Assembly (NCBI GenBank): GCA_050953105.1
Contig: JBMNMA010000007.1
Span: forward strand, 130,461-194,460
Reading direction: 5' to 3'
DNA from: Eubacteriales bacterium
Lineage (GTDB): Bacteria > Bacillota > Clostridia > Oscillospirales > CAG-382
Length of the DNA stretch: 64,000 bases
Of the stretch, positions 35,122 through 51,301 are shown one piece after another (within the stretch, counting starts at the first letter, position 1; the number at the start of each line of letters is the position of its first letter). Below the pieces are notes generated by a model. The model made no database searches. It saw only the letters and a list, made by a program, of their open reading frames with translations, and had not been told where the DNA came from. The position numbers and the translations under genes are program-made.

Positions 35122-36987
35122 ATGAACGATCTTGTATATGACGTAATAGTGGTTGGTGCGGGACATGCGGGAATAGAAGCCTCCCTTGCCGCCGCACGGC
35201 TGGGTTTAAAAACCGCCGTGTTTACCCTTAATATAGACCTTGTGGGGAACATGCCCTGCAACCCCTCCATTGGCGGCACTGGAAAGGGACATCTGGTGTT
35301 TGAAATTAACGCCCTGGGGGGCGAGATGGGCAAAGCCGCCGATGCGGTGATGCTTCAGTCGAGAATGTTAAACTCCTCCAAAGGCCCTGCCGTCCATTCT
35401 CTGCGGATGCAGGCCGACCGGGCGGCATACCGCAACTATATGAAAAAGGTGCTTGAAAACACCCCCAACCTTACATTGGTTCAGGCCGAGGTTACCGATA
35501 TTTTACTTGAAAACGGCGTTGTCTGCGGCGTTATGACCGCTTTCGGCATGAGATATTATGCAAAGGCGGTTATTATGGCTACCGGCACATCACTGGCGGG
35601 CAAAGTCATAGTAGGGGAGACCTCCTACCAATCCGGTCCCGACAACACCCTGCCTGCCACAAGGCTTGCCAAGAATTTAACCGACATAGGGGTTAAAATT
35701 GTCCGGTTTAAAACAGGCACCCCTCCCCGTGTCCACGCCGACAGCCTTGACTATGACGAAATGGAAATTCAGTATGGTGACGAGTTTCCCAAACTCTTTG
35801 CCTCCGACGACTACGGGGTTAATCTGCGCTGCTGCTATATAACCTATACCAACGAAAAAACCCATGAAATCATTCGTAAAAACCTCCACCGCTCACCCCT
35901 ATTCGGCGGTGAGATAAAGGGAACCGGCCCCCGCTACTGCCCCTCCATAGAGGATAAGGTGGTGCGCTTTGCCGACAAGGAACGCCATCAGCTTTTCATT
36001 GAGCCTATGGGCCTTGATACCAAGGAGATGTATATTCAGGGGTTGTCCTCCTCAATGCCGGAGGACGTTCAGCGGGAAATTGTCCATTCCATAAAGGGGC
36101 TGACAAATGCAAAAATAATGCGCACCGCCTATGCCATAGAATACGACTGCGCCGATCCCACCCAGCTAAAACCCACCCTTGAGTTCAGGGACATTCCCGG
36201 CCTTTACGGTGCCGGCCAGTTTAACGGCTCGTCAGGCTATGAGGAGGCGGCGGCCCAGGGACTTATCGCCGGCATAAACGCCGCCCTTAAAATTAAAGGG
36301 AAAAGCGAGTTTATTCTGTCAAGGGGCGAAGCCTATATCGGCACCCTTATAGATGACCTGGTTACCAAGGGCACCAACGAACCCTACCGGATAATGACCA
36401 GCCGTTCGGAATACCGCCTTTATCTGCGTCAGGATAATGTCAAGCGGCGGCTTATGCCAAAAGGCCGTATGATTGGACTTGTTACCGACGAAGAATACGA
36501 AAAATTCCTTAAAGATGAGGAGCTTTTAAACAGCGAAATTCAAAGGCTTAACGCCGAAACGCTAAAATCCACCGATTCGGTAAACGATCTGCTTGTATCA
36601 AGGGGATATGACAAACTGTCCGGCGGTATTAGAAAGGACGAGCTTTTAAAGCGGCCGCTTATTTCCATCTGGGACATTTACAATCTTGACGGCACAGCGG
36701 ATATCCCACGTCATATTGCCGAACGGGCGGAAATTGAGATTAAATACGAAGGCTATATCAAAAAAGAACTGGCCGATGTTGAACGGTTTAAGCATCTTGA
36801 AGAAAAACAAATACCTGCCGACATTGATTATTCCAAAATAACCGGCCTGCGTATAGAGGCAAGGCAAAAGCTTGAGAAATTCAGGCCCGAATCGGTGGGC
36901 AGGGCGTCGAGAATTTCCGGCGTTTCACCGGCAGACATTTCGGTGCTGCTTATATACCTTTCGCAGAGAGGGAAGAGAAATGGTTGA
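35122..36987 (+). CDS. mnmG: tRNA uridine 5-carboxymethylaminomethyl modification enzyme MnmG
   Basis: The FAD motif is VIVVGAGHAGIEA; GPRYCPSIEDK is present; 621 aa. Confidence 0.97.
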   Translation: MNDLVYDVIVVGAGHAGIEASLAAARLGLKTAVFTLNIDLVGNMPCNPSIGGTGKGHLVFEINALGGEMGKAADAVMLQSRMLNSSKGPAVHSLRMQADRAAYRNYMKKVLENTPNLTLVQAEVTDILLENGVVCGVMTAFGMRYYAKAVIMATGTSLAGKVIVGETSYQSGPDNTLPATRLAKNLTDIGVKIVRFKTGTPPRVHADSLDYDEMEIQYGDEFPKLFASDDYGVNLRCCYITYTNEKTHEIIRKNLHRSPLFGGEIKGTGPRYCPSIEDKVVRFADKERHQLFIEPMGLDTKEMYIQGLSSSMPEDVQREIVHSIKGLTNAKIMRTAYAIEYDCADPTQLKPTLEFRDIPGLYGAGQFNGSSGYEEAAAQGLIAGINAALKIKGKSEFILSRGEAYIGTLIDDLVTKGTNEPYRIMTSRSEYRLYLRQDNVKRRLMPKGRMIGLVTDEEYEKFLKDEELLNSEIQRLNAETLKSTDSVNDLLVSRGYDKLSGGIRKDELLKRPLISIWDIYNLDGTADIPRHIAERAEIEIKYEGYIKKELADVERFKHLEEKQIPADIDYSKITGLRIEARQKLEKFRPESVGRASRISGVSPADISVLLIYLSQRGKRNG

Positions 36988-39871: not shown

Positions 39872-41479
39872 ATGGCTGAAAAAAACCCCAATCAATCACC
39901 CGAAAAGACCGGTCTTAACGCCAGTGACTTTTACACCGTGGACTACGGCCTTGAGGGAGATATAACCTTAACCGACATTACCCCCCTACCTCCCCTAGAC
40001 GATGAGGGAAAAGGCAAGGGCCAAAAAGGGGGAAAAAGGTCGAAAACCGGAAAAAAAGACAAATCTAAATCCAAGGAAGACGGTATAGATGCCGACATCT
40101 ACGGAGAAAACGACGGGGAGGGTTTTACACCCTCTGCCGATATTTCCGTTTCTTCCGGTGAGGAAGGGAAAAAGAAAAAATCCTTACTACCCTTCAAGTC
40201 AAAGGCGGCAAAGCGGCCGGTTCCCAAGATAAAGTGGCAAAAGGATTTGTCCTTTGCAGGAATACTTTTAAATAAGATCAAGGCATCCCACCCGGCAATA
40301 ATCGTTGGCGTGGACATGCATGCCAAAACAATAAATATCATGGACATTAAGGGGACAAACGGCAAAACCGCCCATGTAACAAGGGTGCCCTTTAAGGAAA
40401 ACCCCGAGGATGATAAGTTCTTTGACTTGCTTTCCGGGGCACTAATGGAGTTTGCCAAATCCAGGCCCCCCGAAAAGTCATTGAACTTTTATATAATACT
40501 CCCAGACAACTGCGCGGCGCTGGACATTATCACCATACCCGCCATAAGCAAAAAGCGGGTGCAGGAATCCTTGGAAATAAATATTTCCGAAACCTATAAG
40601 GATATAAACGCCCTGCGGATGTCCTGCTCCACCGTGGTGTCCTCCAACCGGATGGTTACCTATACCCTTACGTCAATACGCAAAAAGCTGCTTCAAAACT
40701 ACAAGCAGGCTCTTGAGCGTGTAAAAATGTCCCCCAAGGTATTCACCTTTTCGGCGGCGGCGACGCTAAACAGTGTGTTTGCCCTTCAGTCCCGCAACCG
40801 GGGCAGGTCCTTTGTGTTTATGGACGTAAAGAAGCACACCACCCGGTTTATAATCGCTGCCAAGGGAAAGCTGGTGGGATTTTACAACCACCCCATAGGC
40901 TATGACATTCTAAAGCCCGACCGGGTGGTAAACGAATACACCCTTTATAACCACGACATAGCTGAACTTGCGGTGTTAAACGCCGAGGAAAAGGCAAAGC
41001 GTAAAGAGTTAACCCTCCTTGATGCCGAGGCTGAGGAGGATAGCGAATCCTTCCTCAACCAGGTGTTGGGGGTAGGAACGGAAATTCCGGCCGATGCACC
41101 CACTCAGAACGAAGCAAAAAAAACACCCAAGGTGCTTCTTAAAAAGACCCCCAAGCGGCTGCCGAAATTTATGCTCCGTCCCGAACCCGAAACACCGGAG
41201 GGGATGATAGCCGAAAACTTCCGCATACTGCTTAAATGGGCCCTCCTTTTGGTGCGTTCCAACAAGGGGCTGGGAAAAGGCTGCGACCCGGAATATATCC
41301 TTGTCAACATTCCGCCCCAGTTTGCCTTTGTAATAGATGAGGTTAACAAAGAGAAAAAGGAAAACGGAATAGAATTTCGTAAATTTACCACCGACCATAT
41401 AAGCCCCAAGGTTTCGGCCAATTTGGAACTGTATGGCGCCGTATATACCGACACATACAATCTCCAGCACAACTTTTAA
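39872..41479 (+). CDS. PilM-like (actin-like ATPase fold) pilus assembly protein with a ~125-aa polybasic disordered N-terminal extension (tentative)
   Basis: After a Lys/Gly-rich region, the segment AIIVGVDMHAKTINIMDIKG resembles the phosphate-1 start of PilM/FtsA-like proteins. Position within the pil operon supports this. There is no TM helix. Confidence 0.45.
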   Translation: MAEKNPNQSPEKTGLNASDFYTVDYGLEGDITLTDITPLPPLDDEGKGKGQKGGKRSKTGKKDKSKSKEDGIDADIYGENDGEGFTPSADISVSSGEEGKKKKSLLPFKSKAAKRPVPKIKWQKDLSFAGILLNKIKASHPAIIVGVDMHAKTINIMDIKGTNGKTAHVTRVPFKENPEDDKFFDLLSGALMEFAKSRPPEKSLNFYIILPDNCAALDIITIPAISKKRVQESLEINISETYKDINALRMSCSTVVSSNRMVTYTLTSIRKKLLQNYKQALERVKMSPKVFTFSAAATLNSVFALQSRNRGRSFVFMDVKKHTTRFIIAAKGKLVGFYNHPIGYDILKPDRVVNEYTLYNHDIAELAVLNAEEKAKRKELTLLDAEAEEDSESFLNQVLGVGTEIPADAPTQNEAKKTPKVLLKKTPKRLPKFMLRPEPETPEGMIAENFRILLKWALLLVRSNKGLGKGCDPEYILVNIPPQFAFVIDEVNKEKKENGIEFRKFTTDHISPKVSANLELYGAVYTDTYNLQHNF

Positions 41480-42303: not shown

Positions 42304-43089
42304 ATGATTACTGTTGTATATATTTTAACCGCCGTTCTGGCCCTCTGCATAGGAAGCTTTTTGAATGTGGTAATATACCGGGTGCCGGAGGGAAAGTCGG
42401 TTGCCTTCCCCCCTTCCCATTGCCCCAAATGCCAAAACCAGATTAAGTGGTATGACAATATTCCCGTATTGTCTTATATATTCCTGCGTGGAAAATGTAG
42501 AAACTGCGGGAAAAAAATATCATTACAGTATCCCGCCGTGGAGCTTGCAAACACACTGCTTTGGATACTTTGCGTTTATATGTTTTGGGAAAAGTCGCCT
42601 GTCTATGCCTTGATATGCATGGCCATCTGCTCGGTATTTATCTGTATTTTTGTTATAGACATTCACTGTCATTTGATTTTTTACCGCTTTCAGATATCGC
42701 TTTTTGTTTTAACAGCGGCATCTGTTTTAACAAAGCAGGGCCCGTCGTTAACCGACCGTCTTATAGGCTTTGGTGCCGGGGCGGTGGTGTTAACCCTTAT
42801 TTATCTCACCTTCCTTGTGATTATAAAACGGGAGGGATTAGGCATAGGCGACATTATATTAATTGCCACAAGCGGACTGTTAACAGGCTGGCAGGGGCTT
42901 ATTCTGGTTATGCTTATATCCTCTGTTTCCGCTTGCTTTGTGCTTTTGGCTGTGCGAATAGCCAGTAAAAAGCACGACCGCTTTGCCGAATACCCCTTTG
43001 CCCCCTTTATTGTGTTTGCCGATCTTATGACATTGTTTTTCGGCGGGCAGATTATTGAATCTTATCTGCGTTTAGTGATCGGAGGTTAA
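42304..43089 (+). CDS. pilD: Prepilin peptidase (A24 family)
   Basis: The N-terminal segment is IGSFLNVVIYR with the CPKC...CRNC zinc pairs. The motif GLGIGDIIL contains a catalytic Asp. The protein is polytopic. Confidence 0.9.
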   Translation: MITVVYILTAVLALCIGSFLNVVIYRVPEGKSVAFPPSHCPKCQNQIKWYDNIPVLSYIFLRGKCRNCGKKISLQYPAVELANTLLWILCVYMFWEKSPVYALICMAICSVFICIFVIDIHCHLIFYRFQISLFVLTAASVLTKQGPSLTDRLIGFGAGAVVLTLIYLTFLVIIKREGLGIGDIILIATSGLLTGWQGLILVMLISSVSACFVLLAVRIASKKHDRFAEYPFAPFIVFADLMTLFFGGQIIESYLRLVIGG

Positions 43090-43093
43090 CCTA

Positions 43094-44302
43094 TTGCCCA
43101 AGTATAAATACGTTGCGGTCAATATAAATAAAGTAAAATTCACCGGCACTTTCATTGCCGAAAATGAAAAGGACCTGGCTGTCCAGCTTGCAAAGCAGAA
43201 TTTATATCTGGTGTCATGTACCCAGGTCAAAAGAGCTTCGCCCAGCAACTTCTTTTCGGTTACCGGTAAAGTAAAACTGAATGAAATAACCACCTTCTGC
43301 CGCCAGTTTTCAATAATGATAAACGCTGGTATATCGGTGGTAAATTCCATCGGGATTTTAAAAAACCAAAAATATACGTCTTATTTTAAAAGCATTCTCG
43401 ACGTGGTTTATGACGATATAAAAGGCGGCTTGTCCTTGTCGGAAGCCATGAAAAAGCATGACAAGGTGTTCCCCAACTTTTTCAGATCAATGGTTTATGT
43501 GGGTGAAATAAGCGGTCAGCTTGACAGGGTGCTGCTTTCCCTTGCAGACTATTACGAAAAAGACAGGGAAATAAAGAAAAAAGCAAAATCGGCATTGATT
43601 TACCCTGGAATACTTTTATCCCTTACGGTTGTCATAGTCGTTATAATGCTCGTTTACGTAATTCCCACCTTCCGCTCTGCTCTTGAGAATATGGAAGTGG
43701 AAATGCCGGCGATAACCGCGACAATTTATGCCATGTCCGACTGGCTTCTTGCCAACTGGAAGTATTTGCTTCTCGGAGCATTCCTGTTTGTGTTTCTTAT
43801 AATGGCGTTTAAGAAAACCAAAAAGGGAACATACTTTTTCGACACTATTAAGCTGAAAATCCCGATATATAGAAAGGTTCAGATAAACCTTATTACATCC
43901 CGGTTTGCCCGGGGTTATGCATTGCTTTTATCAAGCGGTATGGACGTGGTGGAAGCAATGGAAACCATGTCGCTGGTGTTGGGCAATACCAATGTAGAAA
44001 AGCGGTTTAAAAAAGCGGTGGAGGAAGTCCGGCTGGGCAACACCATAACCGGATCCCTTGGGGCATACGATATGTTCCCGGACATACTGCTGCAAATGGT
44101 GGCGGTAGGGGAAAAAACCGGTACGCTCAGCGAGGTTTTAACCAGGGCCTGTACCTACTTTGACGACCAGGTGGATTCCTCCCTTTCTGCGCTTACGGCC
44201 ATGCTCCAGCCCATACTGATTACAATTTTGGGCGGTTCGGTGGGAACCCTCTTTTACGCCATATATGCGCCGATGATATCAATAATGCAAACCTATCTAT
44301 AA
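43094..44302 (+). CDS. pilC: Type IV pilus platform protein (GspF/PilC family)
   Basis: It has two T2SSF repeats (FCRQFSIMINAGISV; FARGYALLLSSGMDV) and three TM segments. Start codon is TTG. Confidence 0.9.
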   Translation: MPKYKYVAVNINKVKFTGTFIAENEKDLAVQLAKQNLYLVSCTQVKRASPSNFFSVTGKVKLNEITTFCRQFSIMINAGISVVNSIGILKNQKYTSYFKSILDVVYDDIKGGLSLSEAMKKHDKVFPNFFRSMVYVGEISGQLDRVLLSLADYYEKDREIKKKAKSALIYPGILLSLTVVIVVIMLVYVIPTFRSALENMEVEMPAITATIYAMSDWLLANWKYLLLGAFLFVFLIMAFKKTKKGTYFFDTIKLKIPIYRKVQINLITSRFARGYALLLSSGMDVVEAMETMSLVLGNTNVEKRFKKAVEEVRLGNTITGSLGAYDMFPDILLQMVAVGEKTGTLSEVLTRACTYFDDQVDSSLSALTAMLQPILITILGGSVGTLFYAIYAPMISIMQTYL

Positions 44303-44341: not shown

Positions 44342-46030
44342 ATGAATATAAATTTCGATATATTTCAGTATTTTGTCTATAAAAAGCTTTTAAAACGCAA
44401 AGACGCCGACGAGATGCTGGTGGAATGCACCCGTTTGGGGCTTACGCCGGAGGAATATCTCAAAAAGAAGGAGCTGGTTACCGAGCTTGAGGAGGTAACC
44501 ACCCTTGCGGAATATTACAACCTTCCCACCGTTCAGGTGGACATGCTTGACATAGACAAATCCCTGCTTTCTAATTTTACCTACGAATTTATGCGTAAGC
44601 ATAAGTTTTTGCCCGTTTCAATAGACAAAAACGGTGTTTTGCTGGTGGCCATAGGCAAGCCCTTATCCTGCTCCGCCCTTTCCATGATATCCACCTTCTA
44701 TTCGGGGTTTATGGATTTTATTTACGTTCCCCCCACCCAGATAGACGTGTATATCGACTCGATTGTGGCGGTTATCCAGACGGCCAAGGCACTTCATGCC
44801 ATCAGCCAGCCGGATACTAACAAACCGCAAGAGAAGGTAACATCCACCGTAGACGGCCTTCAGGATGAGGACGATGTATTAAGCAATCCCGCCGTCCGGC
44901 TGGTTGACTCGATTATTAAAGAGGCCATACCCTCCCGGGCCAGCGATATTCATGTAGAACCATTTGCCTCGGTGGTTAAGGTCAGATACCGTATTGACGG
45001 CTCGTTACGTGACCGGGCGGAATTTCCCATAGAGGCCTATGGGGCAATTTGTGCCAGAATGAAAATTTTATCAAACATGAATATAGCCGAGCGGCGTATA
45101 CCCCAGGACGGGCGTATCCACCAGACAATAAACGGCAAGGAATACGACTTCCGTGTGTCCTCCCTCCCCACCATTTACGGTGAAAAGTTTGTTATACGAA
45201 TTTTGGACAAATCCTCCTTCTATTTCACCCGTCAGGATTTGGGATTTACTCCGGAGGAAAATATCCTTATTGATAAAGCCCTTGCCCGGCCTAACGGCAT
45301 AATATTACTGACCGGACCCACCGGCTGCGGCAAATCCACCACCCTTTACTCCTTCTTAAAGGAAATAAATAAAGCTGACGTTAACATTATTACGGTAGAA
45401 GACCCGGTGGAATATACCATGCCGGGGATAAACCAGGTTCAGGTCAACACAAAAGCAAACCTCACCTTCGCCTCGTCACTAAGGTCTATACTCCGTCAGG
45501 ACCCCGACGTTATTATGATAGGTGAGATTCGTGACGAAGAAACCGCCCAGATAGCCGTCAGAGCGGCCATAACCGGCCACCTTGTTTTCTCCACACTCCA
45601 TACCAACGATGCACCGGGTGCCATAACCCGTCTTATTGACATGGGTACGGTAAGTTACCTCCTTGCCGATGCGCTGGTGTGCGTTATCGCCCAACGACTT
45701 GTTAAAAAGCTCTGCCCCGCCTGTAAAAAGAAGGGAAAAACCAATGCTCAGGAAATGGAGATATTAAAGCTTGACGAACCCGCAACCATCTGCCGCCCCG
45801 TAGGCTGCCAGTTTTGCGGTAATTCAGGCTATCGGGGAAGGCTTGGGGTGCACGAGATAATGTATATAAACGAAACACTCAGGGACGCCATTGTAGGTGG
45901 CATTAGCATTGAGGATTTAAGAAAGCTTGCAAAGGAACACGGCCTTGTTCCCCTTTGGGATTCCTGCCGTAACTTTGTTCTCCAGGGACTTACCTCCATT
46001 GACGAGCTTAAAACACTAAACATAGAATAA
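44342..46030 (+). CDS. pilB: Type IV pilus assembly ATPase (GspE/PilB family)
   Basis: Walker A GPTGCGKSTT, Asp box, Walker B VIMIGEIRD, His box TGHLVFSTLHTN, and the tetracysteine motif CPAC...CQFC. An N-terminal T2SSE_N-like domain is present. Confidence 0.95.
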   Translation: MNINFDIFQYFVYKKLLKRKDADEMLVECTRLGLTPEEYLKKKELVTELEEVTTLAEYYNLPTVQVDMLDIDKSLLSNFTYEFMRKHKFLPVSIDKNGVLLVAIGKPLSCSALSMISTFYSGFMDFIYVPPTQIDVYIDSIVAVIQTAKALHAISQPDTNKPQEKVTSTVDGLQDEDDVLSNPAVRLVDSIIKEAIPSRASDIHVEPFASVVKVRYRIDGSLRDRAEFPIEAYGAICARMKILSNMNIAERRIPQDGRIHQTINGKEYDFRVSSLPTIYGEKFVIRILDKSSFYFTRQDLGFTPEENILIDKALARPNGIILLTGPTGCGKSTTLYSFLKEINKADVNIITVEDPVEYTMPGINQVQVNTKANLTFASSLRSILRQDPDVIMIGEIRDEETAQIAVRAAITGHLVFSTLHTNDAPGAITRLIDMGTVSYLLADALVCVIAQRLVKKLCPACKKKGKTNAQEMEILKLDEPATICRPVGCQFCGNSGYRGRLGVHEIMYINETLRDAIVGGISIEDLRKLAKEHGLVPLWDSCRNFVLQGLTSIDELKTLNIE

Positions 46031-46045
46031 CGGGGAAGGCGTAAT

Positions 46046-47593
46046 ATGAAGTTTAACGACTGCGTTCATTTTCTATATGACGGCGGCGAGCTTGAAAGAA
46101 TAGCCTCACCCTATGTCGCCCTTGCCGGAGGTGGGATTTTTTCCCTAAAGAAAGCCCCCTCCTGCGACAGGCTTATTGCAAGTATCGCCAAGGCGCAGGA
46201 TAAATACTTAGACAAAGAAAACATTAACAATGCCCTTAAATCGCTGTCGGAAAACAGCGACAAGGACATTGCTTTTGTATTTCCCGTCATTTTACGGGAA
46301 ATACTGCTTGAAAAAAACGACTGCTGCTACGAAACAAACTCGGTAAGCCTTGAGGTGCTGGAATACGAACGGGAAATTATAAAAAAAGCCAACAAGCTGG
46401 TTTTGAAAAACCTTTCCCCCGATATTTTAGCCTACCGGCAGATGCTTAAAATAACAAGAGAGGAAAATTTATCCGGCAAAGAGGTTAATACCCTTATTTG
46501 CCACATGAAGGAATATTACGGCGTGAATGACGAGGACGACCGGGTTATAAGAGCAAACCTCGGTATTTACCCCACTACCGAAAAATTCCAAACCCACACA
46601 AAGGCTCAGATTGAAAAGGCAAGGCAGGCACTTCAGAAAGCGGGGCTTGTGTTTTCGATAAGAAAAAGCGACGGGGTGATTTATGATATTATCCCGGAGG
46701 AAATTGCCGCAGGCATTAAAAAATATTTCGGCATGGAGGTAAAGGCCTCTGCTTATGAAAAAATAATAAAATACATGCTTGCAGAGTATAAAAAGCAGTA
46801 TTTTATCGATACTTTGACCGCCTTCGGCATAGAAGTTCCCCAAAAGCCCAATTCGGCAAACCTATCATTGCTTGCAAAGACAAAGCTTAAACCCAGCGAC
46901 CTTATGGGGGGCAACAAGCAGTTCGAAGGCCTTTCCCGCAAGGCCCTTACCGACTGGTGCGAGGAGCTGGGATTAAACCGCACCGGCTCAAAGCAGGCGC
47001 TTATAGAAAAGCTGCTTGACTATTACGACCGTTCGGTGGAGGGTGAATACAAAAGCGACTACCGGGTGAGGTTTTATAATCATTACGAATCGATTGCCTC
47101 CCTTAACGCCGAAATATTCCAAACAGGTGAGCTTTCGGGCATATCCATAGGTGCTGACGGCATTTTTTCCGAAACCACCAATTATATATTTGAAATTCTG
47201 TTATCGTTAAAACCCGACCGCCTTTTGTCAAAGGCAAACATTACGGGTAAGATAACAAGCGGTGATAAGGCATATCTGTATGCCGCCGTTGCGTCGGAAT
47301 CTCCTGTTAACCTTGCCGAGCATATATCTAGTCTTTCAGCTGTTGTGGATGGTGAAGGAAGGGAAAGGGTGGCGGCAGTTATCGTGGTGGCAGATGACTT
47401 TACCGACGATTCGGTTAAGGAATGCGTTATGTATTACGCCAAAACCGACGTTCAGATATGCTTGATAAAAGCATCAGAATTAAAGGAATTAGCCGATAAA
47501 TGGACAGCAAAAGGGGAGCAAACCCCTTTTCCCATAAAATATCTCAGGCAAAACGGAAGGTTCGACAGAAAGGGATGCGAATTTATAGGCTGA
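46046..47593 (+). CDS. Uncharacterised cytoplasmic protein with a SAP DNA-binding motif and a restriction-endonuclease-like C-terminal region
   Basis: RBS GGGGAAGG lies 15 nt after the pilB stop. The SAP-like helix-extended-helix is LSRKALTDWCEELGLNRTGSKQALIEKLLDYY (aa 296-327). The C-terminal AAVIVVADDFTDDSVKE...ICLIKASELKELA has the layout of Mrr/FokI-type nuclease folds. No signal peptide or TM helix. Confidence 0.7.
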   Translation: MKFNDCVHFLYDGGELERIASPYVALAGGGIFSLKKAPSCDRLIASIAKAQDKYLDKENINNALKSLSENSDKDIAFVFPVILREILLEKNDCCYETNSVSLEVLEYEREIIKKANKLVLKNLSPDILAYRQMLKITREENLSGKEVNTLICHMKEYYGVNDEDDRVIRANLGIYPTTEKFQTHTKAQIEKARQALQKAGLVFSIRKSDGVIYDIIPEEIAAGIKKYFGMEVKASAYEKIIKYMLAEYKKQYFIDTLTAFGIEVPQKPNSANLSLLAKTKLKPSDLMGGNKQFEGLSRKALTDWCEELGLNRTGSKQALIEKLLDYYDRSVEGEYKSDYRVRFYNHYESIASLNAEIFQTGELSGISIGADGIFSETTNYIFEILLSLKPDRLLSKANITGKITSGDKAYLYAAVASESPVNLAEHISSLSAVVDGEGRERVAAVIVVADDFTDDSVKECVMYYAKTDVQICLIKASELKELADKWTAKGEQTPFPIKYLRQNGRFDRKGCEFIG

Positions 47594-47651: not shown

Positions 47652-50540
47652 ATGGCTAAAAGACATTTGTATTCACGGGTCCCGGCAAAGGCAAGCATGT
47701 ATCAGTTAACCGACGGTTATGATACCTTCGCCCGTTCCGGCGGCCTTGACAAAGATTTTATATTTTCAGAAATGGGAAGGCTTTTCGAGTATTCCCCAGG
47801 CAAAGCCGAAAGCGGCATGATACTCGACGGTGTTCTTCCTCCTACCTATGCCAGCCTTCGCACTCCGGGAGGAGATATTGTGCACTCCTGTATAACCTAC
47901 CTCCCCAGGGATTTCACCGGCGAACGTTATGCCGTTATGATAAATTCCCTTGTCCTTGACAAGGATGAAAAGCAGGAAGTATACACAAAAAAAGAGGCAG
48001 CCTATTTCAACCCCGGATTGTTTGACGAAAAAATATCCGACTTTAAAATAACCTCCGCCGATTATGCCCCCATAACCGACTACCCCGAAACCAGATACGA
48101 AACAGCTCCATTAAAAGATATTTCCCAAATAGTCGGTGAATATGACGAAAGGGTAATAAAGCGGTTGCTGTTTGCTCTTATATATGTAACGTCATATAAA
48201 AACAAATACGTGTTTATCGCCCCCGTAATGCCGGCGGAAGAGCTTTCCCAATGGGGACTTGAGCTTATTAACGCTCTTATGCAGCTTTTCCCCGCCTTTG
48301 TCAGGGAGCGGCTGTCCTATATAACCTTTATAACCGAATACAAAAAGATGAACTGCTTTAACGTCAAGTTTGTCCACTCGGACGATATTCAAACCGCCGG
48401 CAAGGGATTTATCTTCGACATGACACCAAGCAAGGCGGACAACATAAAGGACAGCGAATACAAGGAATGCGAAAGCGAAATCAACTTTTTGTATGAGCTT
48501 TGCGAAAACAAGACAAAGAGGGACGCATGGACATCATTTTGCGATAATATTTCATTAAATGATGATAATTACGAAAAGCCCTCACTTAATGCTTTCTGCG
48601 ATCTGGTGCTGCTGTTCAAGCAGGCCCGCTACGAGGGAGAGCCGGAGGAAAATGACCTTGTAGCCAACGATAACGCCTGTTTTAAGCTTATTTCCACCTA
48701 CCAAAGCCACAGAAACGTCCTTGAATTAAAGGACAGACTTAATATTCTGGCACCGCTTATTTCAAGATACTGCCGCACCCGGGCTGCCATACCCGCAAAT
48801 ATTTTTAGTAGAATAACCAAGCTTTATCCTAAAGAACCTGAGGAATGCCGGGTTGTTATAATGGACGGCTTGCTTGAGCTTATCCATACCGACGCCATGC
48901 GGGAAAAGCTGTTTTCCTTTATTAAAAGCGTCTTTGACGGCGAAAACGCCGAAAGACGGGAAATTATATGCGAAAATCTGTCAAGGGTTTTTTACGGCGG
49001 CTTTCTGCAGGAGCAGATTTTAACATTATTCGACACCGCCTTTGAAAAAGAAACCTACCAAAGCAAAACCAACATTATATCAAAGCTCCTACTTTCCATA
49101 CGCACAGAGGGAATACGGGATAAGGTGTTTGAATTTTTAAAAGCCCACCGGGACCACATGACCGAGGACCACCGGAATTTGGTTTATTCCGCTTTGGTTG
49201 ACGCAATTCCGTTTAAGGACAAGACCGCGTCAATGGCCGTTGAGGTTATCGACCATTACACCCAAATCGAGTCACCGGCCGCCCAGAACGAGATAGTGTA
49301 TGAGCTTTACGCTATGCTTGAGGAGGACGACTCTGTTGCAGGTGTCCTTGTTACCGACAGCGATATTTCCCGCAAAGGCCCCGTTTCACTGGGAATAATT
49401 AAAAAAATCGTCAGAAAAAACGCTAAGAAAAAGCTTTTCACTCTAATGCTTTCCCGCCTTGCGGGGCAAAAGCTTTACGGAATTGCCAACGCCGTGGAAG
49501 GGGTGTGGCTGTTTGACGAAACCGACAGCGAGGGAATTAACAAGGCATTGTCCGACAAGCTTAGAATATTGTTTGAGGAAGCAGGGCAAAACACAACCCT
49601 TGAGGATATGATAACGCTTCATAAACGCCTTACGGAATCCCCCCTAAACAAGGGCGATTTCAGACAGGGGGTGTATAAAAAGCTATGTCTGTCCTTCCTT
49701 TATCCGCTGATGGGAGAAAGGTATATAAAAGCCCTTGACCCAAGGCAGTATGCCAAACCCATATCCTATTATGCCGGCTTTGCTTTGACCACAGAGGGAA
49801 TATCCTCCTTTGCCGGTGTTAAGACGGTTATTCAGTTTGCCGACCTTGTAAAGGCCATAAACGACCTAAAACCGGTGGATGCACTGGATATAGTGTTTAA
49901 GCTTGAAATACCGCCTGAGCTTGTTCAGCCTGCCTTATACCGGCTTAAAGCGGAATGCAAGGGAGTGTTTGAGCTTTCGGCAAATTCAAACTCTGCTCAG
50001 GTGGTTGATGTCTGCTCGTCGGGCTGTTATGCCGTTGCTACTGCGGCTGCGGAATATATCGAGCATAAGCGGATAAATATGCCACGGCTGTTTGACGAAA
50101 ACCTGAAGGTTTTGGAAAAACGCCTTCAGGACGACTTGAATAAAGCCGAAGATCCCCCTAAAAACTTCAAAAAAGCGTCACTTGAGGCCCACGACACGGC
50201 TTTGGTAAAATCCCTTGAGGGTTTGACACGGTTTTGCGCCAATGTGTGCAAAACCCGGTTAGATGAAATGGCAAAGCAGAAGCTGTGCTACGCCCATATA
50301 AGCGACCTTGACTATATTCTGGTGGATTTGTTTAACAGCCATTTCAAGTCACTTAAAAAGGAAGTGATGGGGTTAAGCCATCACCTGCGGGCGACAGATG
50401 CCATTATCGCCGAAAAGGTAAAGAATAATTACGGTAAAAAGTCACTTCCCGAACGGGATGATACCGCAACTCCCACTTCATCAGCCACAACTGCATCACA
50501 AAAATCCAAGGGATTTAGTCTATTTAAAAGAAATAAATAA
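47652..50540 (+). CDS. Uncharacterised 962-aa cytoplasmic, largely alpha-helical protein
   Basis: The ORF is long, clean and in the same orientation, and ends just before the operon terminator. The N-terminus is HLYSRVPAKASMYQLTDGYDTFARSGGLDKDFI. No TM helix or signal peptide. The tail is basic and Ser/Thr-rich. The RBS is weak, so the start is uncertain (alternative Met16 at 47697). Confidence 0.7.
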   Translation: MAKRHLYSRVPAKASMYQLTDGYDTFARSGGLDKDFIFSEMGRLFEYSPGKAESGMILDGVLPPTYASLRTPGGDIVHSCITYLPRDFTGERYAVMINSLVLDKDEKQEVYTKKEAAYFNPGLFDEKISDFKITSADYAPITDYPETRYETAPLKDISQIVGEYDERVIKRLLFALIYVTSYKNKYVFIAPVMPAEELSQWGLELINALMQLFPAFVRERLSYITFITEYKKMNCFNVKFVHSDDIQTAGKGFIFDMTPSKADNIKDSEYKECESEINFLYELCENKTKRDAWTSFCDNISLNDDNYEKPSLNAFCDLVLLFKQARYEGEPEENDLVANDNACFKLISTYQSHRNVLELKDRLNILAPLISRYCRTRAAIPANIFSRITKLYPKEPEECRVVIMDGLLELIHTDAMREKLFSFIKSVFDGENAERREIICENLSRVFYGGFLQEQILTLFDTAFEKETYQSKTNIISKLLLSIRTEGIRDKVFEFLKAHRDHMTEDHRNLVYSALVDAIPFKDKTASMAVEVIDHYTQIESPAAQNEIVYELYAMLEEDDSVAGVLVTDSDISRKGPVSLGIIKKIVRKNAKKKLFTLMLSRLAGQKLYGIANAVEGVWLFDETDSEGINKALSDKLRILFEEAGQNTTLEDMITLHKRLTESPLNKGDFRQGVYKKLCLSFLYPLMGERYIKALDPRQYAKPISYYAGFALTTEGISSFAGVKTVIQFADLVKAINDLKPVDALDIVFKLEIPPELVQPALYRLKAECKGVFELSANSNSAQVVDVCSSGCYAVATAAAEYIEHKRINMPRLFDENLKVLEKRLQDDLNKAEDPPKNFKKASLEAHDTALVKSLEGLTRFCANVCKTRLDEMAKQKLCYAHISDLDYILVDLFNSHFKSLKKEVMGLSHHLRATDAIIAEKVKNNYGKKSLPERDDTATPTSSATTASQKSKGFSLFKRNK

Positions 50541-50589: not shown

Positions 50590-50620
50590 AAAAAAACAAC
50601 CAACCCGGTGGGGTTGGTTG
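50590..50620 (-). terminator. Terminator of the minus-strand coaD-side gene string
   Basis: A 10-bp stem, caaccaaccc / gggttggttg, with a T7 run in minus orientation. Confidence 0.75.
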
Positions 50621-50626
50621 TATGAT

Positions 50627-51301
50627 TTAATATAAAATATCGTAATCGTCGCTTATTGAATTGAGCAGAGTATCATACTCGTCCATTATTGTTTTGCAAT
50701 AGGTTTCTATCTTGCTTGTGAGGTCAGAAATCTGCTCCATATATTTGGTGTAATAGGTATCGTAATCGTTGGCGTTAACCATTTTAATAAGAGACTTAGT
50801 CCTTGCCAGCAGTTCATTGGATGAATTCTTAAGTGAAGAAAACATGCTGGAAAGATTATTGTATTTCGTCCGGTAGGAGGACGTTGAGGAAATATTATAT
50901 TTTGTAAGCAGCTTTTGATACTTGCTAAGGATTTCGTCCATGGTTGAATATGCCGAATTAAGGGTGCGGTCGGCATAGTGGTCAATATAGGTCAAGGCGT
51001 CGGTAATCGAGGTGGTGGAGTTCATAAGCGCCTTTATAAGCGCACCCTGAGTTACCTGGATTGTGGTAAAGGGCAGGGTGGACACAATATCCTTGCTTTC
51101 GTAATACAAGTGAAGCAGCGACAGCTTAAACTGTATGGATGAGTTTGTGTCGGTGGCAGGCAGCACGGATGTGTCCCCGCTTGTGTCGGCATTGTCGGAC
51201 GAAGCAGAAAAGCCGGAAATTACAATAACCGACAAAACCACGCATATTACAAGCAGAACGGCACATACGGCAGTGAGTATTCGGGTAGGATTTTTCATCA
51301 T
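50627..51301 (-). CDS. Hypothetical membrane-anchored Ser/Thr/Tyr/Asn-rich helical protein
   Basis: An N-terminal TM anchor, ILTAVCAVLLVICVVLSVIVI, is followed by a low-complexity helical ectodomain. No family was recognised. Confidence 0.6.
   Translation of the reverse strand: MMKNPTRILTAVCAVLLVICVVLSVIVISGFSASSDNADTSGDTSVLPATDTNSSIQFKLSLLHLYYESKDIVSTLPFTTIQVTQGALIKALMNSTTSITDALTYIDHYADRTLNSAYSTMDEILSKYQKLLTKYNISSTSSYRTKYNNLSSMFSSLKNSSNELLARTKSLIKMVNANDYDTYYTKYMEQISDLTSKIETYCKTIMDEYDTLLNSISDDYDILY

Follow-up and report, generated by a model that had tools for sequence, protein, structure and literature searches.

The best structural matches of the protein described here are FokI (PF09254; 1FOK and 2FOK) and the nickase N.BspD6I, the latter being the large subunit of a heterodimeric enzyme. 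Within the PD-(D/E)xK superfamily, migration of active-site residues is documented, and the inactive domains of ERCC1, EME1 and the RPB5 N-terminal domain have been kept as structural or partner-binding modules. The SAP motif (PF02037), found in eukaryotic proteins such as SAF-A, THO1, MKL1, PIAS and Ku70, consists of a helix, an extended loop and a helix over about 35 amino acids (aa). GAP1 domains belong to the GAP1 systems of DO-GTPase conflict systems, which are GTPase-centred (Kaur et al. 2020, PMC7159879). In these systems, a double-GTPase is encoded upstream of GAP1 or fused to it, with a fibronectin type III (FNIII)-repeat component for the N2 type, and pili go unmentioned (PMC7159879). 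Here we analyzed a 64-kb stretch of contig JBMNMA010000007.1 of an Eubacteriales bacterium (the window), in which an open reading frame (ORF) at positions 46046..47593 of the + strand, including the stop codon, encodes a 515-aa SAP/inactivated FokI-like protein. In the type IV pilus operon to which it belongs, this ORF is flanked by pilB and a GAP1-like gene.

The gene was delimited from the ORF list, full-length homologues and a predicted structure. The initial annotation had covered only 46928-47593, the final 221 codons of the ORF (46928 is codon 295), and included neither the pilus-operon context nor the active parent family. The protein has three parts, an N-terminal module of ~290 aa, a SAP motif (aa 296-329) and a PD-(D/E)xK domain (aa ~338-515), and all three are under purifying selection. 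Its catalytic residues are lost, a loss restricted to one small clade in which the gene sits in the pilus operon. Our explanation is that a nuclease, apparently of defence type, was domesticated into a DNA-binding protein that no longer cuts and has been kept as part of the end of the pilus operon in a few gut-type Clostridia; to this composite we assign a probability of roughly 0.6. The narrower claim, that the SAP motif plus the inactivated FokI-type domain is under selection, is highly probable. What is new is a naturally inactivated, domesticated variant of a known nuclease domain, located in an unnamed family and in an unexpected operon.

A FokI-type domain without its catalytic residues

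The C-terminal domain (aa 338-515, 47057..47590, + strand) was identified as a catalytically inactivated PD-(D/E)xK domain of the FokI cleavage type by Foldseek, Pfam matches of the homologues and hhalign. The AlphaFold2 (AF2) model of the window protein, built from a 39-sequence alignment, has a mean predicted local distance difference test (pLDDT) score of 87.6, with most of the C-terminal core above 90. In the Foldseek search of the PDB, this model matched 2fok_B (E=1.5e-5) and 1fok_A (E=1.9e-5), with a probability of 1.00, and then N.BspD6I. The Pfam model FokI_cleav_dom matches 16 of the 39 full-length homologues (best E=9.3e-8). The C-terminal profile of the family was also aligned by hhalign with the FokI cleavage-domain sequence (E=5.8e-5, probability 66%), and the register was informative: the family PDG falls on the FokI PDG (D450) and WDnK on VDTK (D467, K469). 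The PDG...D-x-K set of the active family members is thus in register with the FokI residues. Weak fold matches in a viral-protein library were restriction endonucleases, an Mrr-domain protein and RPB5. Profile searches of PDB sequences, with the full family or with the C-terminal domain, did not retrieve FokI.

The initial annotation had read the last ~170 aa as a domain of Mrr_cat/FokI type with the conserved elements of the PD-(D/E)xK core in order. The FokI half of this assignment stands, whereas Mrr_cat (PF04471) gave no match at E<=0.01 in the window protein or the 39 homologues. The order of elements agrees with the AF2 secondary structure. IFEILLS lies within helix 370-385, KAYLYAAV forms strand 408-415, AAVIVVAD forms strand 442-449, ICLIKA forms strand 470-475 and SELKELADKW forms helix 476-488, giving the alpha-beta-beta-beta-alpha-beta order of the core.

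Although the fold and the core order are shared with FokI and N.BspD6I, the window protein has T, A and V at the positions of D450, D467 and K469. The alignments and the hhalign register place T400 (47243..47245, + strand) at the PD aspartate equivalent to D450, next to a retained G401, and A413-A414-V415 (47282..47290, + strand) at the D-x-K of WD(N/C)K, equivalent to D467 and K469. In the alignments, S375 (47168..47170, + strand) replaces the glutamate of the first core helix (FExAT motif). This glutamate is kept in at least 90% of the family, and the clade of the window protein reads FSETT or FAETT. In a 67-sequence alignment, (P/A)DG ... (W/Y)(D/E)(N/C/T)K is present in essentially all full-length members and missing only in the window protein and three relatives, P0001 (99% identity), P0002 (62%) and P0003 (54%). 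This dead clade reads T400-G401 ... Y412-A413-A414-V415 (or A), with S or A at the E375 position. Motif alignments of 8, 39 and 67 sequences agree that the loss is confined to it. The suspicion that the domain has no clean (D/E)xK lysine and is catalytically dead or a variant was therefore well founded, since YAAV stands where family members have WD(N/C)K and the substitutions occur only in this small clade. The C-terminal domain is homologous to the FokI cleavage domain but lacks its catalytic residues, and the protein should therefore not be filed as a FokI-type endonuclease.

The residues that determine the fold, F374, T378, F382, G401, E418, H426, A476 and W486, are retained. The window C-terminal domain shares 19% identity with distant active members, compared with 34% for near-active members, and the N-terminal part shares 21%, compared with 24%. 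From these sequence identities, the divergence of the C-terminal domain appears accelerated, as is typical after loss of function.

We compared the window gene with its orthologues in two loci, L001 from a Eubacteriales metagenome-assembled genome (MAG) and L002 from an uncultured Ruminococcus MAG, using Nei-Gojobori counts. The proportion of synonymous differences (pS) was 0.72-0.78, which is saturated, and that of nonsynonymous differences (pN) was 0.20-0.29, alike in the N-terminal part, the SAP motif and the dead domain. The dead domain taken by itself has a pN of 0.20-0.27 and an amino-acid identity of 55-66%. The similar pN/pS across the parts indicates that the dead domain is under purifying selection as strong as that on the rest of the protein. 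The ORFs of the dead clade are intact and full-length in four genomes.

The putative DNA-targeting parts and the active family

The SAP motif (aa 296-329, 46931..47032, + strand) was located from Pfam, the homologues and the AF2 helices. The residues 296-327 are LSRKALTDWCEELGLNRTGSKQALIEKLLDYY, as quoted in the initial annotation, and they fit the pattern L..L...GL..G.K..LI..L. Pfam SAP PF02037 matches aa 301-327 of the window protein with E=1.6e-4 and 21.6 bits, slightly below the gathering score of 23.9. The match is not due to chance, because 24 of the 39 full-length homologues match SAP at the aligned position (best E=1.1e-15). In the AF2 model, helices 298-307 and 316-329 flank an extended loop, GLNRTGSK, which contains the conserved G.K. 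The motif proposed from the pattern is therefore upheld at the family level. The family profile also matches the solved SAP domains of MKL1, THO1 and Hcc-1, weakly (E 0.2-0.4). The window copy differs from the eukaryotic SAP motifs in being bacterial, in lying between two other domains and in having a second, degenerate SAP-like pair of helices just upstream (aa ~250-290 in the family consensus).

The N-terminal module (aa 1-290, 46046..46915, + strand) is mostly helical in the AF2 model, with one beta-hairpin (203-215). Modeled separately, aa 1-292 are compact (pLDDT 90.6, predicted template modeling score 0.87). Foldseek against the PDB found no significant solved-structure match for aa 1-292, the best E being 0.38 and the weak matches mostly winged-helix DNA-binding proteins, and a profile of the module had no match among PDB sequences. 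A segment of the form ISxDExxLIxKLRxxLxI gave a weak Pfam TerB match in 6 of the 39 members (best 1e-4). We considered whether these 290 aa are a FokI-like recognition domain and rejected this, as the high-confidence model has no significant match to a solved structure. Unlike FokI, the window protein thus has a SAP motif before the cleavage-type domain and, instead of a FokI-like recognition domain, an N-terminal module matching nothing. Two marginal matches were judged to be chance, namely 3htn, a 'putative DNA binding protein' found with the whole protein in a sequence search against the PDB (E=0.053), and Pfam L7Ae (E=0.11). The window protein had no match to PADLOC, NCBIfam or PHROGs models.

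The profile matches include proteins which share the N-terminal module and SAP motif but have other C-termini. In the clearest of these, P0142 (1211 aa), the effector is not a nuclease domain but a BrxC/BrxD BREX-type ATPase (Pfam E=1.1e-92). Such fusions suggest that the N-terminal module plus SAP is a portable DNA-targeting head with interchangeable effector domains. The combination of module, SAP and BrxC/BrxD BREX-type ATPase occurs likewise in P0150. A different arrangement is seen in P0141 (1462 aa), which was retrieved through its SAP repeats only: about eight tandem repeats are followed by a Ydc2/RuvC-like resolvase domain (Pfam Ydc2-catalyt, 1.8e-13).

Full-length homologues of the window protein have identities of 99, 62, 54 and 31-22%. 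A word-indexed search gave eight relatives, and a profile search of 1.84 billion cluster representatives gave 481 clusters at E<=1e-3, 122 of them at E<=1e-30, most being ~500 aa long and covering the whole profile. A locus search with a narrow alignment re-found only the two already known MAG contigs. The solitary SAP-FokI-like nucleases thus form an unnamed and sizeable family. We examined the surroundings of active members in 80 metagenome loci and one IMG/VR locus by calling ORFs and clustering the neighbors, which gave 55 dereplicated groups. Neither a conserved neighbor nor a recurrent methyltransferase was found beside the active members in these groups. The neighbors that recur, in two to three groups each, encode a CI/LexA-like S24 repressor, XRE regulators, an ImmA-like metallopeptidase, a serine recombinase and an Mrr-like protein. 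One active member adjoins NERD and MrcB_N/NOV_C genes, and another stands alone next to a sugar kinase. With no conserved neighbor and sporadic genes of mobile type, the family looks like one of solitary nuclease genes that reside in variable or mobile regions. For the active family, a role in defence or conflict is plausible. Against PADLOC and NCBIfam, the active homologues gave only a marginal REase_II match (0.0062, for P0008).

At four of the active loci (L032, L039, L040 and L096, an IMG/VR contig), which fall into three dereplicated groups, the gene immediately upstream of the active homologue (position -1) encodes the CI/LexA-like S24-peptidase repressor. At other active loci, ImmA-like, XRE or serine-recombinase genes adjoin the nuclease gene. 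This arrangement resembles cargo at a prophage or integrative and conjugative element (ICE) immunity region.

We rejected the reading of the window gene as part of a type IIS restriction-modification system. It differs from FokI in having no methyltransferase partner beside it; no methyltransferase was found near the window gene or conserved beside the active members in the 55 dereplicated loci.

Position in the pilus operon and its explanations

The window operon, on the + strand, consists of a pilin gene (39143), a 535-aa ORF, genes for two small pilin-like proteins, a prepilin peptidase, PilC and PilB, the SAP/FokI-like gene and the GAP1-like gene. Pfam identified the prepilin peptidase (42304-43089, +), the PilC-like platform protein (43094-44302, +), the PilB-like ATPase with an MshEN domain (44342-46030, +) and the last gene of the operon, which encodes a 962-aa GAP1-like protein with GAP1-N2 and GAP1-M domains (47652..50540, +). 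The GAP1-N2 match has E=5.4e-9 (36.6 bits, threshold 24) and the GAP1-M match E=4.5e-5 (24.0 bits, threshold 24). Between the pilB stop codon and the start of the SAP/FokI-like gene lie 15 nt, and 58 nt separate the gene from the GAP1-like ORF. A Shine-Dalgarno-like GGGGAAGG (46032..46039, +), read from the sequence, lies 6 nt before the ATG. No terminator-like sites were found on the + strand in either of these two gaps.

The order pilD-pilC-pilB-[SAP/FokI-like gene]-GAP1-like is the same in the window, L001 and L002. A short contig with the sequence of 99% identity (L015) shows only unannotated ORFs flanking the gene, which is compatible with the same order. The GAP1-like protein has 106 homologues of ~900 aa. 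Of five lineages sampled outside the dead clade, four have its gene directly after pilB and the fifth has it elsewhere, and tblastn found no remnant of the SAP/FokI-like gene in these sister pilus operons. Since sister operons without the SAP/FokI-like gene have the GAP1-like gene after pilB, this junction existed before, and the SAP/FokI-like gene was inserted into it in a lineage-specific manner. The inserted gene kept its place while synonymous sites saturated.

The neighbor itself shares GAP1-N2, GAP1-M and a polar C-terminal tail with the DO-GTPase/GAP1 systems (PMC7159879). In contrast to those systems, the window GAP1-like gene follows a PilB-type ATPase, and no DO-GTPase, FNIII-repeat or tubulin gene lies near it; for GTPase and FNIII proteins, this covers ~10 kb on either side. 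In the sister lineages, the gene upstream is likewise PilB. GAP1-like proteins of ~900-960 aa are encoded by the conserved last gene after pilB in the window, L010, L014, L097 and L099/L100, representing several Clostridia lineages, and no partner of the DO-GTPase, FNIII or tubulin kind is encoded nearby.

We propose the following course for the domesticated protein. Its ancestor would have been one of the widespread solitary SAP-FokI-like nucleases with the full PD...DxK set, located in variable or mobile regions. In one small group of Oscillospirales-type Clostridia, the 3' end of the type IV pilus operon presumably received a copy, which became fixed there with pilB before it and the GAP1-like gene after it. 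There it would have lost all catalytic residues (E375 to S, D400 to T, D413 to A, and K415 to V), and the whole protein, including the dead domain, would since have been kept by purifying selection. The cytoplasmic protein likely no longer cuts DNA and may bind it without cleavage through the SAP motif and probably the N-terminal module. The dead nuclease fold may be kept as a surface for dimerization, DNA clamping or partner binding. Both the expression and the action of the protein would be tied to the pilus machinery and/or the GAP1-like protein, possibly in regulating the operon or in sensing or tethering DNA at the pilus base. ERCC1, EME1 and RPB5, the last of which is among the weak structural matches, likewise have a nuclease fold under selection after catalytic loss, but these eukaryotic or archaeal proteins come from different branches of the superfamily. 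Literature searches found no bacterial FokI-type example of a retained inactive domain, and nothing relevant came up for the SAP/FokI-like architecture or for Gram-positive pilus operons with such a gene.

Several points weigh against this explanation. The window protein by itself has no match to the nuclease models in Pfam, NCBIfam and PADLOC, so that its FokI assignment rests on the homologues and the predicted structure, and a caveat on the hhalign result is that its FokI sequence was entered by hand. DNA binding and the absence of cleavage are both inferred. The dead clade comprises four sequences from three species-level lineages, all on metagenome-derived contigs. E418 and H426, together with the clade-specific D391, R392 and K396, are conserved, and an unorthodox active site is thus conceivable. 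The gene and the pilus operon may be connected by position alone, and the absence of the gene from most such operons means that it is not needed for pilus function in general.

Among the alternatives, the one with the highest probability is itself unlikely: the gene may be a passenger unrelated to pilus biology, a defence-type nuclease which landed at the operon end and was retooled. Since FokI-type domains must dimerize to cut, the protein might be a dominant-negative or decoy partner that heterodimerizes with active family nucleases from mobile elements; otherwise it might be a generic DNA-binding regulator. The solitary parent family in mobile or variable regions, the fusion of the N-terminal module and SAP to BrxC/BrxD, the absence of the gene from most pilB-GAP1-like operons and the heterodimeric enzyme of its structural neighbor N.BspD6I are all in line with this. 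However, the gene has kept this position in lineages with saturated synonymous sites, which argues for more than a chance landing, and a search of the 64-kb window for a paralogue of the gene, active or not, found none.

The pilus link could also be taken further than in the domesticated-protein explanation. In a speculative and quite unlikely version, the dead nuclease and the GAP1-like protein would act together as a DNA-sensing module, coupled to the type IV pilus machine at its cytoplasmic base. The defence-derived head, made of the N-terminal module, SAP and the non-cutting FokI fold, would report or tether DNA. The regulatory role of the GAP1-like protein, of the DO-GTPase type, would be turned onto the PilB ATPase. 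Such a module may guard against pilus-dependent phages or help pilus-mediated DNA uptake.

It is improbable that the protein is still a nuclease with migrated catalytic residues, for which D391, E376, E418, K396, K402 and K408 would be the candidates. Active-site migration has precedents in the superfamily, E418 and H426 are invariant in active and dead members, and D391, R392 and K396 are invariant within the dead clade. On the other hand, small or hydrophobic residues have taken all four family-conserved catalytic positions at once, the loop containing D391 to K396 is of lower confidence (residues 391-400, pLDDT ~66), and the C-terminal domain shows the accelerated divergence typical of function loss. 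A decaying remnant without function, a pseudogene in the making, would fit the lost catalytic residues and the absence of the gene from sister operons, but this is very improbable: the ORFs are intact and full-length in four genomes, the model is confidently folded, and the pN of 0.20-0.29 against saturated pS in every domain largely refutes it. That the C-terminal region is not PD-(D/E)xK and resembles it by chance is close to negligible, for although the window protein alone has no nuclease Pfam match and FokI is missed when PDB sequences are searched with the profile, there is homology along the entire protein to sequences matching FokI_cleav_dom, and Foldseek (probability 1.00) and the hhalign motifs in register both point to FokI.

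In the domesticated-protein explanation, the gene would represent a natural bacterial FokI-type cleavage domain which was switched off and then kept, with active relatives for comparison. It may be useful for learning what the FokI fold can do besides cutting and which residues a non-cutting scaffold tolerates. The analysis also defines the sizeable, unnamed SAP-FokI-like nuclease family (481 clusters). The BrxC/BrxD fusions hint at a portable DNA-targeting head in defence-type proteins, and the association of GAP1-like proteins with type IV pilus operons in Clostridia is an unreported link.

Other features of the operon and its surroundings

Between the pilin genes, the 535-aa ORF (39872-41479, +) has no Pfam match; its counterpart in L002 has 562 aa. 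The sister operons encode a protein of ~400-415 aa before pilD, also without a Pfam match. A 54-60-aa ORF (L099 7727-7891 and L100 7649-7831) takes the place between pilB and the GAP1-like gene in an Oscillospiraceae MAG. This small ORF has a C-terminal hydrophobic helix (…WGLIIGTFAISIAVALIVILSI) and is unrelated to the SAP/FokI-like gene.

Downstream of the GAP1-like gene, which ends at 50540, a GC-rich hairpin with an 11-bp stem and a T-run (50596-50621) precedes a convergent minus-strand gene at 50627-51301. This hairpin is probably a shared or bidirectional terminator marking the end of the operon. Just upstream of the pilus operon, the segment 33736-38307 (+) contains mnmG/gidA (35122-36987), rsmG/gidB and a NUDIX gene. 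The mnmG/rsmG neighborhood suggests a chromosomal location, possibly near the replication origin.

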